From: Pristiophorus japonicus
Lineage: Eukaryota
Direction of reading: 5' to 3'
Assembly (NCBI RefSeq): GCF_044704955.1
Contig: NW_027250686.1
Span: 62,001 to 124,579 of the forward strand
DNA: 62,579 nt
The notes below the pieces were generated by a model. That model ran no database searches. It had not been told where the DNA came from and saw only the letters and a list, made by a program, of their open reading frames with translations. Both the position numbers and the translations under genes were made by a program. Of the stretch, positions 35,712 through 42,972 are shown piece by piece (position 1 is the first letter of the stretch; every line of letters begins with the position of its first letter).

Positions 35712-36370
35712 CTACCTACGGCCACGCTTCCCTCCCCTAACTTGACCCCTCCTGGTCGTAACCCTCACTTTCCCACTCAATCCCCTGGTAACGGGACCAA
35801 GTCGCCTTTGCGAAGAAACGTCTTGCGAGTTCGAAGGCAGTTCTTCCTCCTGTGTCGCGTCTGTCGCGCTGGTTGGTGGTACGGCACCTTGGGGTGCAGA
35901 GCCGTATCTTGAGACTATCGCTTGCCGCAAGGCCTCGATAGCGTCGGGCATCTGGTCCATTGCCACGGCTATCTGCTCCAAGCCCTCCGATATTGTGGCG
36001 GAGAGCGTGGCAAAGTTGCCGGTCAGCACACCAATCGCCTGGACGAGCTCGCGACCAAAGTCGACGCTCGCCCTCGACAGTGACATCACGTCCTCGTTGA
36101 CATGGGCCCGCCGCAGCACGTGCCTCCCTCGCCGACTCAACCTCCGCGGGGCCGGCAAGGGCACTGGGTGACTCGGAGCGGCCTGTTGCAAGCCGCTGGG
36201 CCCCGCTGCCTCATCCATTGAGGAGGAGCTGGCCGCAGGTACCACAGATGATGTATCCAGCTCATCCTCCTCCTCCTCCTCCTCCTCCTCGGTGGTATTT
36301 TCTTCAGTGGTCAGCACGACCCGCAGCGGCATTGGTGGTGCCGCAGGGGCCTCCTGTTGCGCCTGGGGAG
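35712..36370 (-). CDS. Harbinger Myb/SANT-like protein, exon 3 (acidic tract, predicted helical segment, basic C-terminal tail)
   Basis: Acceptor TTTTCCAG at 36371-36372, phase 1, open to TAG at 35712; poly-E run and C-terminal RRGQVRGGKRGRR. Confidence 0.78.
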
Positions 36371-36516
36371 CTGGAAAACACAATTGAGGTTCGTAGGGTA
36401 GACATGAGAATGCTTGCGCTGCGCAGGCGTATGTACGAGGAGCAACACTGCTGCAATAAATGTGAAGGAGAGGCGTGATTAATATAAGAGTACAGAAGCT
36501 GCATGCATCACATTAT

Positions 36517-37232
36517 GACCCAGAAATCCCCGTTTCTTCTTCCCGCGGACGTTCAACTAAAAATAGGAAAAAATGTGCGCACTTACCTTTCGGTCAAACG
36601 CCCGCCAGAGATCCCGGACTCGAGGCCTCCTATTCTCGCGCAACGGAGCGCGTTCACGTTGCGACGTCCGCAGGAGTCACGTGGGCCTGGACACCCAATC
36701 ACGGGTAAATATTTTCTCATTCCCAGTAATAGGAGTTTCGTAAATCCGAAACTCCTCTTACTATGAATGAGAAACACCCCCCAAACACTACATAAAACAT
36801 TTTTTTAAAAACTCACATAAATACGTTATAGAAATTAAAGTTGCTAGAAATGTTTTTTTAAAGAAAAAAATTGCAGATTTTTAAAAATAGTTTTAATTAC
36901 GGTTAAAAATAAATGTAACATAGTGGGCAGGGTTTTTAAAAATAATGTTTTTTTTTTTAAATTGAATTTAATTGTATTTTTGTATGTTTTAAAACTCTTA
37001 CGCCTGTAACAGTGGGCTATGCGCCTGCTTTTATCAGGCGCAAGAGTTTTGAGGACATTTGCTGGGCAAGATATGGGTAAATCCCGCAATCTTGCCCAAG
37101 CAAATGTCCTCGCTCCCGAGATACGGAGGATCTGTCGAGCCAGAAACTGTGCGCTGAAAACCGGCTTTTGCGATGCCTTCCTAGATCCGTACCCACTCCG
37201 TACAGACCCGGGGAGGCCGTGATTTCTGGGCC
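36517..37232 (-). mobile_element. MITE copy 2 (family of 2489-3186), in intron 2 of the Myb/SANT gene
   Basis: Reverse-complement similarity over its full length; TIRs GACCCAGAAATC / GATTTCTGGGCC; ATTAT on both flanks. Confidence 0.9.
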
Positions 37233-37271
37233 ATTATCATTCATATATTATGATCAAATGGCATTAAATTA

Positions 37272-41400: not shown

Positions 41401-41804
41401 AAGAATGAGAGAGGATCTCATAGAAACGTTTAAAATTCTGACGACGTTAGACAGGTTAGATGGAGGAAGAATGTTCCCAATGTTGGGAAAGCCCAGAACC
41501 AGGGGTCACAGTCTAGGATAAGGGGTAAGCCATTTAGGACCGTGATGAGGAGAAACTTCTTCACCCAGAGAGTGGTGAACCTGTGGAATTCTCTACCACA
41601 GAAAGTTGTTGAGGCCAATTCACTAAATATATTCAAAAAGGAGTTAGATGAAGTCCTTACTACTCGGGGGATCAAGGGGTATGTCGAGAAAGCAGGAATG
41701 GGGTACTGAAGTTGCATGTTCAGCCATGAACTCATTGAATGGTGGTGCAGACTCGAAGGGCCGAATGGCCGACTCCTGCACCTATTTTCTATGTTTCTAT
41801 GTTT
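38447..41804 (+). mobile_element. CR1 with ORF1 C-terminus (SGNH esterase-like) and disrupted full-length ORF2
   Basis: ORF1 end ..NTWLEQWC..DGLHL..EELN* (38763); EN and RT motifs with stops and frameshifts; (TTCTATGT)n tail. Confidence 0.95.
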
Positions 41805-42708
41805 CATTGAACTCATCCTTTTTTGGCGTGGAAGCAAGTCATCCTCGTTTCGAGGGACCGCCTATGATGATGATTATATGCTAAACAGTTTGGATGCATG
41901 GTTATAACATCTACGTTCAGAGAAAATATGTAATAAGATCGTGTTTAGGAACTAATGCTCGCCATCAACCCTCTCGCGTACGACCTCCAGGAAAGGCCCC
42001 AACCACGGGCCGTGCCATTCGGTGCCTGAGGGGAGGTAGGCGGTTTATTGGAATCGATGGAGGTCCCGGGGGGAGAATCAGGACCGCTGTTGAGCTGGTG
42101 AGCACGGCAATGACCGGACCATGAGGGGAGGGGGCACCGTATCCCTGGGCTGTGCTCGGAGACCTCCGTGTGGCTGAAGCTAATGTCCCAAAGTGTCCCA
42201 GGGCAGACAGTGAGCCAGGGCAGCTCTCCCCCCAGTCCAGGCTGGGTCACTGTCTGACTGACAGCAGCCGGAGACACTCACACAGTCTGGGTAAAGGTGA
42301 GTGGACCCCTCAGTGCTCAGTCGTGTCCCCATCCACCAACCTAACCGCAAAAGGTGACGGTGCCCAAGTTAAAGAGTTGCTCGCAGCACACACACAGCGA
42401 TACAATTTAATAATTCTCCTTCGAAACTAAAGTGGTAGAAATGCCGAGTGTTTGCGGTCTGTCTGTTTCCAGTCATTCCTTTGGCCACAATTTTCAATCA
42501 AAGCCTTTAAATCATAATTAATACTGTCGATTAAATGTAAGGCATCTCAGCAAAATTAGAGTTAAGGGGCACAGGTTCCGGCCCCAGTCCAAATCTTAAC
42601 AGGAAGCTACCCACGATTACCCAGCTTAATTACAATCCAGCAGATTTACATTCTAATTGATGAGTTAGTGCATCATTACAATTTTAAATTTAATAATTGA
42701 ATATGTAC

Positions 42709-42972
42709 TCTTGCCGACGCGACAAGACTGTTCCAGCGCTTGCGGCACTGGTCAGCCTCACTTCTATCGTGGGCCACAGATGAACCAAGGGCAGTGATAT
42801 CTGCCCATATTTTTTGATAAAACCGGGGTGGAGGGTTCCCATGCCCACCCCGGGTTAACTGGCTCCACCGTGTCTCCACCTCGGTGACTAAGGCCTCATC
42901 TGAAAAGGCTTTTGCCCTCCTTCTCTCGATACCTCCTCCACACTCTCTCCCGACATCATGATCCATATCCAT
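42709..42972 (-). CDS. Harbinger Myb/SANT-like protein, exon 1 (trihelix DNA-binding domain)
   Basis: ATG at 42972; RAKAFSDEALV..V..RW..L...KIWADI......R...QCRKRWNSL; donor AGA|GTACAT, phase 0. Confidence 0.8.

Follow-up and report, generated by a model that had tools for sequence, protein, structure and literature searches.

A 62,579-nucleotide stretch of the Pristiophorus japonicus genome (contig NW_027250686.1, positions 62,001 to 124,579 of the forward strand; hereafter the window) gives rise to a host-transposon chimeric transcript, in which a minus-strand host first exon with a CpG-island promoter is spliced to the second and third exons of the Myb-like open reading frame (ORF) of a dead Harbinger transposon, and the reality of this transcript is hardly open to doubt. 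The window forms the final 62.6 kb of a 124.6-kb contig, with which it shares its end, in a genome of 5.9 Gb. Based on comparison with other copies of the same transposon, we propose that the reading frame of exons 2 and 3 has probably been selected in place, a conclusion that we hold with somewhat better than even confidence, and a frame so kept would likely make a lineage-specific gene of transposon origin. In the proposed mechanism, a Harbinger transposon lies downstream of the host CpG-island promoter, the host first exon is spliced onto the exon 2 acceptor of the transposon itself and then to exon 3, and the resulting 291-residue frame without a Myb domain would be retained by selection, whereas one terminal repeat, the transposase and the first Myb exon have decayed.

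Exon 3 is contained in seven sequencing runs, none recorded as RNA, four of which were examined: X1, X6 and X7, three samples of one study, and X2, a DNA run. The former three were taken as RNA-like because exact GT-AG exon joins are present there and absent from X2. The join between exons 2 and 3 (37706/36370), which a first-pass annotation of this DNA had proposed, was found exactly spliced with GT-AG ends in X1, X6 and X7 and was absent from X2. The same annotation had placed exon 1 before exon 2 (42709/37859), and this junction fared differently, with no such join among the contigs listed for the four runs, in the knowledge that contigs lose rare forms. Instead, contigs around exon 2 in X1, X6 and X7 exit at 37859-37861 with an identical run of 30 letters, an exact match to window positions 57696-57725, where an exon ends at a GTCAGT donor; the upstream exit thus leads to 57694 in three of three RNA-like runs. 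From an ATG at 57756 this host exon contributes 21 codons, in phase with those of exon 2, and the translation of all three joined exons is identical, letter for letter, to the 291-aa database protein P0001, a model that probably comes from the same assembly and hence is not independent. The exon 2 acceptor, TTTGCAG, matches the family majority, which indicates that it was supplied by the ancestral element, and exon 3 has lost 90 nt in frame relative to the family. Longer fused forms were sought and none was found, which is weak evidence; likewise, a search for the original partner exon of the host first exon identified none. The host promoter, where by eye we spotted what we take to be CCAAT-, CRE-, ETS- and YY1-like motifs, is probably head-to-head with a plus-strand zinc-finger gene at 60426. 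In X1, alternative exon 3 alleles occur at window positions 36169 and 36186 (H140R and a silent change at Q134), and since both are the family majority base, the alleles of the assembly are likely derived and segregating. A degenerate short repeat of ~60 nt occupies 57170-57560, immediately 3' of the host exon donor, with related units at ~47050-47300.

The first-pass annotation had regarded the locus as an intact three-exon Myb/SANT gene. Its three minus-strand pieces (42972-42709, 37859-37706 and 36370-35712) do join through GT-AG ends into 1077 nt encoding 358 aa with zero internal stops. The word intact does not fit exon 1, in which the first codon is ACG where the majority of 60 copies has ATG, deletions of 2 and 1 nt shift about nine codons before the frame is restored, 9 nt are deleted from helix 1, and the donor is GTACAT, as against GTAAGT in 37 of the 48 copies of the eight commonest listed classes. 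The weak donor and the short helix 1 deletion, both already suspected, were thereby confirmed. Because of this decay the exon scores 15.7 bits (E 0.014) with the Pfam Myb model PF13873, below the cut-off of 21.7 bits. Exon 1 is open in 9 of 51 other copies as well, and its openness is therefore little informative. We conclude that the first Myb exon survives only as a relic, which the observed transcripts skip.

The element itself is a dead Harbinger/PIF transposon. An open 48-aa piece of its transposase scores 39.3 bits with DDE_Tnp_4 (cut-off 24.8), and the ORF, ~405 aa in the family majority, is broken in the window copy by two stops, 12 indels of which 8 shift the frame, and two insertion sites, in agreement with the earlier description of the partner transposase as dead. 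The second Harbinger ORF, with a Myb/SANT/trihelix domain, was confirmed in the family: among 33 relatives with a preserved exon 1, 4 score above the Pfam cut-off. Dispersed copies start with GGGCTAGAC and several finish in the complement of GGGCTAGAC; of these two ends the window copy retains one, which carries a mismatch, and lacks the second. The genome contains many copies of the family (first looks gave 2247 and 5900 candidates, of which 40 were scored in each case), and 60 copies were fetched and aligned as its reference. To their majority the window copy is 91.1% identical, within the usual range of 90-93%. The control copies are the best DNA matches to the window and no random sample, and five poorly aligned loci (L086, L088, L095, L097 and L120) were excluded from the later analyses of private alleles and lesions. 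One dead copy turns up repeatedly, at almost the same score, on a large number of small contigs (L145, L146; C25, C71, C392, C1093, C2321, C3745, C3784, C3913, C3936 and C4216), where it probably sits inside an amplified repeat unit.

Relative to these copies, exons 2 and 3 of the window copy are unusually well preserved. They are free of lesions, a state reached by none of the other copies in two sets (0 of 48 and 0 of 20, or 0 of 68 combined); when the deleted 90-nt stretch is left out, the other copies carry a mean of 3.9 lesions and 1 of 45 is lesion-free. All five indels of exons 2 and 3 are in frame, while the rest of the same copy has 10 in frame and 43 out (p 0.0007), and the same test based on the 41% in-frame share of other copies gives p 0.012-0.03. 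The suggestion that selection has kept the ORF therefore survives in part: it holds up for exons 2 and 3, which have this integrity and some codon-position evidence, and is lost for the Myb/SANT exon, decayed and skipped. A count of open Myb ORFs in other copies, as was recommended, divides in the same manner (exon 1 open in 9 of 51, exons 2 and 3 lesion-free in 0 of 68).

The codon-position evidence derives from private changes, defined as alleles found in at most 8% of other copies. Exons 2 and 3 carry 27 silent and 38 replacement private changes and no stop, compared with 10.4, 24.0 and 1.0 per copy elsewhere, and the private rate of exon 3 (8.3%) lies above that of all 49 other copies, whereas in the window copy the transposase, intron 1 and exon 1 are at 3.7%. 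With regard to dating, the one rate encountered is 7e-10 per base per generation (accessible part of PMC10587355). Private A/T-to-G/C changes affect 19 of 73 four-fold degenerate sites (26%), 10 of 176 zero-fold sites (~6%) and 28 of 623 intron sites (4.5%), so that four-fold sites differ from both zero-fold (p 1.8e-5) and intron sites (p 1.8e-8). The corresponding four-fold count is 6 of 86 in the transposase of this copy, and in other copies the rate is flat at ~2.2%, the highest of 50 being 6.6%. With all private changes included, 31 of 493 zero-fold and 24 of 160 four-fold sites are altered (p 0.0015), an overall ratio of ~0.4 as measured against the family majority, and for exon 3 alone the test yields p 0.0007, below all 49 controls. 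The GC content of third codon positions (GC3) in exons 2 and 3 is 0.648, against 0.526 +/- 0.019 for the family, and is shifted toward the neighbouring zinc-finger genes (0.82 and 0.96). This pattern of codon position and GC is absent from exon 1 and from the transposase of the same copy. The raw ratio of nonsynonymous to synonymous rates against the majority (0.58 for exons 2 and 3, 0.24 for exon 1, 0.67 for the transposase) was rejected as a test, as dead copies also give 0.36-0.73 through subfamily structure and method bias.

Capture of Harbinger exons by host promoters is not confined to this copy. A second X1 contig joins a different host-side exon (G000:C12, donor 136348627) to Harbinger exon 2, and the latter fits a family copy ~75 kb downstream (L236:2777-8726), although only by one contig. 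In the copy trapped there, exons 2 and 3 are broken by 2 stops and 5 frameshifts and show no codon-position effect (46 of 549 zero-fold vs. 14 of 190 four-fold sites), and in this one case transcription by itself did not create the pattern seen in the window. Among gene models, P0003 (L244:2702-7730) has the same design, with a CpG-island exon 5 kb upstream of exon 2 of a sister family, P0018 places an Ig-domain protein before Harbinger exon 3, and P0005 and P0025 have one common N-terminal peptide joined to Harbinger Myb exon 2 or 3. The N-terminus of P0015 bears what is presumably a THAP-like motif, with no Pfam match at E 0.001. A full HMMER search with the 291-aa protein returned 34 other proteins at 27-59% identity, of which the 10 looked up all carry the same-species label and 24 were not looked up; in a word-indexed search the N-terminal 75 residues and exon 3 match only P0001, labelled Pristiophorus japonicus. 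A literature search outside subscription journals and supplements turned up nothing published about this gene, nor about the trapping of Harbinger exons in sharks.

A number of points weigh against selection on exons 2 and 3. The overall synonymous excess is weak (p 0.024), and in a spectrum-matched simulation the silent count reaches only p 0.056. Zero stops are expected by chance 45% of the time, and their absence was rejected as evidence of selection (simulation p 0.45), as was the conservative character of the amino-acid changes, which are equally conservative in the dead transposase. The A/T-to-G/C class was picked after inspection of the data. Zero-fold sites are no slower than introns, and the signal therefore consists of a faster silent gain of G/C. 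Similar zero-fold to four-fold ratios are seen in a diverged subfamily whose copies are dead and inherited them from an active lineage. Since trapping also occurs at the dead C12 copy, capture alone is no domestication. Finally, database searches, in which close relatives may be absent, returned no ortholog of the 291-aa protein, a result that fits a lineage-specific gene.

Part of this would be explained by a neutral gene trap, in which the strong family acceptor of exon 2 catches any upstream promoter, the frame is open by chance and the GC gain stems from GC-biased gene conversion. The recurrence of trapping at the C12 copy and in further gene models of the same species agrees with such a view, and with 2247 and 5900 candidates, a chance of 1-2% per copy would leave dozens open; in a sister family, by hand count, ~36 of 116 best matches are without a stop in exon 3. 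The region is moreover GC-biased, non-coding weak-to-strong and strong-to-weak changes (A/T to G/C and the reverse) standing at 44:22 as compared with 949:1678 in 55 copies, and GC-neutral changes, at 13 of 493 zero-fold vs. 4 of 160 four-fold sites, have a ratio of ~1 and so reveal no constraint, just as neutrality would have it. Conversion is blind to codon position, however, yet the gains reach 26% of four-fold sites vs. 5.7% of zero-fold sites and 4.5% of sites in flanking introns, and the four-fold weak-to-strong to strong-to-weak ratio of 19:1 exceeds the non-coding 44:22 (p 0.011); the trap would also need the in-frame host ATG and five in-frame indels to have arisen by chance. We consider it unlikely, while still a serious competitor.

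Alternatively, the signal may have been inherited, exons 2 and 3 stemming from a rare Harbinger subfamily whose Myb gene was selected while the element was active, after which the copy became an unselected trap. Divergence among subfamilies does fall mainly on the Myb exons, with introns and transposase spared, and L210 and L222 have zero-fold and four-fold rates much like those of the window copy, exon 1 of L222 being non-elevated. Against this, every other copy is at most 83% identical in exon 3 (among the 40 scored of 2247, and of 325, candidates), the eight diverged copies form a single clade that excludes the window copy, which has no more than 6 of 67 rare alleles in common with any other, and the four-fold changes of the diverged copies are balanced (93:78) compared with 19:1 in the window (p 0.0002, the copies being non-independent). 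An inherited signal is accordingly rather improbable to us. Sister families B and C were also tried as a source of the private alleles and were unsupported. In the subfamilies (L209-L215, L222, L228) rare-allele differences amount to 8-20% in the Myb exons and to only 4-9% in intron 1 and transposase, and exon 1 has deep clades not present in intron 1, which may reflect fast Myb evolution or exon swapping. The original idea of a whole domesticated three-exon Myb/SANT gene encoding a DNA-binding factor draws on the in-frame join of the three exons and on the chance that a minor exon 1 isoform escaped contigs that drop rare variants; in view of the frameshifts, helix deletion, lost ATG, mutated donor and sub-threshold Pfam score of exon 1, its openness in 9 of 51 other copies, and upstream joins from exon 2 that all go elsewhere, we deem it very improbable.

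Returning to the probably selected 291-residue frame, the nature of its product was approached through prediction. Pfam searches of P0001 revealed neither transposase sequence, Myb domain (none at E 0.1) nor host domain. AlphaFold2, run with a 31-sequence alignment, gives disorder and one 73-residue helix (residues 156-228; predicted local distance difference test score, pLDDT, 88-97) with a hydrophobic 3-4 pattern recognised by eye, and the ends of the protein are basic. Neither fold nor sequence searches matched a solved structure, and an Atlas search gave only Myb/SANT leads scoring below 0.9. The product is predicted to be nuclear, basic at its ends and acidic and disordered in between, with a single long amphipathic helix that would oligomerise. 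According to the accessible parts of the respective papers, Harbinger Myb proteins bind the transposase and bring it into the nucleus (PMC9392472), and in the Arabidopsis Myb protein HDP2 the C-terminal part is needed for binding the transposase-derived HDP1 (PMC5339849). By analogy with these contacts we suggest, tentatively and provided the frame is selected, that the protein may oligomerise and serve Harbinger transposases, or domesticated relatives of these, as an adaptor or decoy that keeps the partner-binding half and no DNA binding. It counts against a decoy that none of 38 examined family copies has an open transposase ORF, which leaves it with no known current target. The full combination, a domesticated decoy in which a headless Myb protein under a housekeeping promoter would act as a dominant-negative restraint on Harbinger transposases, the exon 2 acceptor making such genes repeatedly and selection having fixed this copy, strikes us as doubtful.

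The features of the locus are collected in Table 1. The first-pass annotation had described four or more later insertions in the Myb gene, all intronic; all are intronic, at three sites rather than four or more, CR1 being nested inside the RTE-like piece of the intron 1 insertion (both family names are our assumption from the appearance of the ORFs). As introns make up 1209 of the 2400 nt of the ancestral gene, three intronic sites out of three correspond to p ~0.13 and are not significant.

Table 1. Features of the chimeric gene and of the Harbinger copy that contains it (window positions)
Feature	Position	Strand	Details
Host CpG-island promoter region, single copy	57401..57960	-	CpG island 57401-57800; 57600-58000 once in genome
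Host first exon, coding part	57694..57756	-	21 codons, basic, phase 0, donor GTCAGT; contig ends in X1, X6, X7
First intron of chimeric transcript, 19.8 kb	37860..57693	-	includes numerous retroelement fragments as well as the relic of Myb exon 1
Harbinger Myb exon 2, second exon of chimera	37706..37859	-	junctions; family's own acceptor
Harbinger Myb exon 3, coding part of last exon	35712..36370	-	residues 156-228 predicted to form a long helix; also an acidic tract and a basic tail
Candidate polyadenylation signal ATTAAA (inferred)	35475..35480	-	sequence
Whole Harbinger copy	31672..43347	-	~4.8 kb of element, with insertions in addition; the end at 43347 has a recognisable terminal repeat, the other is lost
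Dead Harbinger transposase	32137..35335	+	2 stops, 8 frameshifting indels; CR1 insertions ~32823-33333 and ~33469-34987
Decayed Harbinger Myb/SANT exon 1	42709..42975	-	comparison with family; none seen in transcripts
Insertion like a miniature inverted-repeat transposable element (MITE)	36512..37237	.	intron 2; 17-nt inverted ends
Second MITE-like insertion	37264..37678	.	intron 2; 18-nt inverted ends
Insertion in Harbinger intron 1	37966..41872	.	short retroelement piece; nested CR1 ~38447-41805

Around the element, many retroelements accompany two open C2H2 zinc-finger genes, one on the minus strand (20227-21018, GC3 0.82) and one on the plus strand (60426-61397, GC3 0.96). A decayed zinc-finger ORF with stops is found at 30260-30890 (plus), and a second CpG island at 27200-27800 may drive the minus-strand zinc-finger gene. 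A 33-bp minisatellite at 13300-15560, of ~60 or more units with ~90% identity, yields long spurious ORFs and has an inverted array near the window start (86-1800). Broken pieces at 2000-5100, 11876-12253 and 48200-51400 resemble, from what we take to be protease, reverse transcriptase, RNase H and integrase motifs, Gypsy-type long terminal repeat retrotransposons.

If the chimeric gene is neutral, it warns that many "uncharacterized" gene models of this genome are Harbinger exon traps. The gene can be set beside several known systems. The KP element of Drosophila encodes a truncated transposon protein that represses its own family, and the window gene resembles it as a half-protein that could poison a transposition complex; KP keeps DNA binding, whereas the window gene keeps the other half, in a family where no open transposase was found (0 of 38). 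Fusions of host exons to transposases by splicing, such as KRABINER and others, used transposon acceptors at 8 of 9 sites, as described in the accessible part of bioRxiv 10.1101/2020.05.07.082677, where the word Harbinger does not occur. As in those fusions, a host exon is here spliced to an acceptor already present in a DNA transposon, in this case that of the family majority. By contrast, the captured part comes from the second, Myb-like ORF and not from the transposase, the host contributes only a promoter and 21 residues, and the DNA-binding domain, which KRABINER-type fusions mostly keep, is omitted.

Like NAIF1 and MSANTD1-4, as presented in the accessible part of PMC9392472, the window gene is a vertebrate gene from a Harbinger Myb-like ORF. 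Those genes have kept the tri-helix domain and are ancient, vertebrate-wide and under clear purifying selection, whereas the window gene is without the domain, lies inside a recognisable element, is ~13-15% diverged from its family and has no ortholog found; since its expressed protein starts in a host exon and is devoid of a DNA-binding domain, the gene does not belong to the NAIF1/MSANTD type. The pairs HDP2/HDP1, ALP2/ALP1 and insect PIF, to judge from the accessible parts of PMC5339849 and PMC9710019, likewise each include a Harbinger Myb-derived protein, and the C-terminal part retained here corresponds by position to the part of HDP2 shown to bind the transposase-derived partner; those pairs arose by domestication of the two ORFs together and require DNA binding, whereas here the transposase is dead. 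Hence, as far as the accessible parts of the compared papers go, domesticated Harbinger Myb genes are ancient and have kept the DNA-binding domain, and the window gene keeps the other half, which bears on whether the C-terminal helix of Harbinger Myb proteins is useful alone. Still inside a recognisable element, and with neutral controls at hand in the form of dead sibling copies numbering in the thousands, it lets the passage from splice trap to gene be viewed directly, including the speed with which third positions move to the local GC content.

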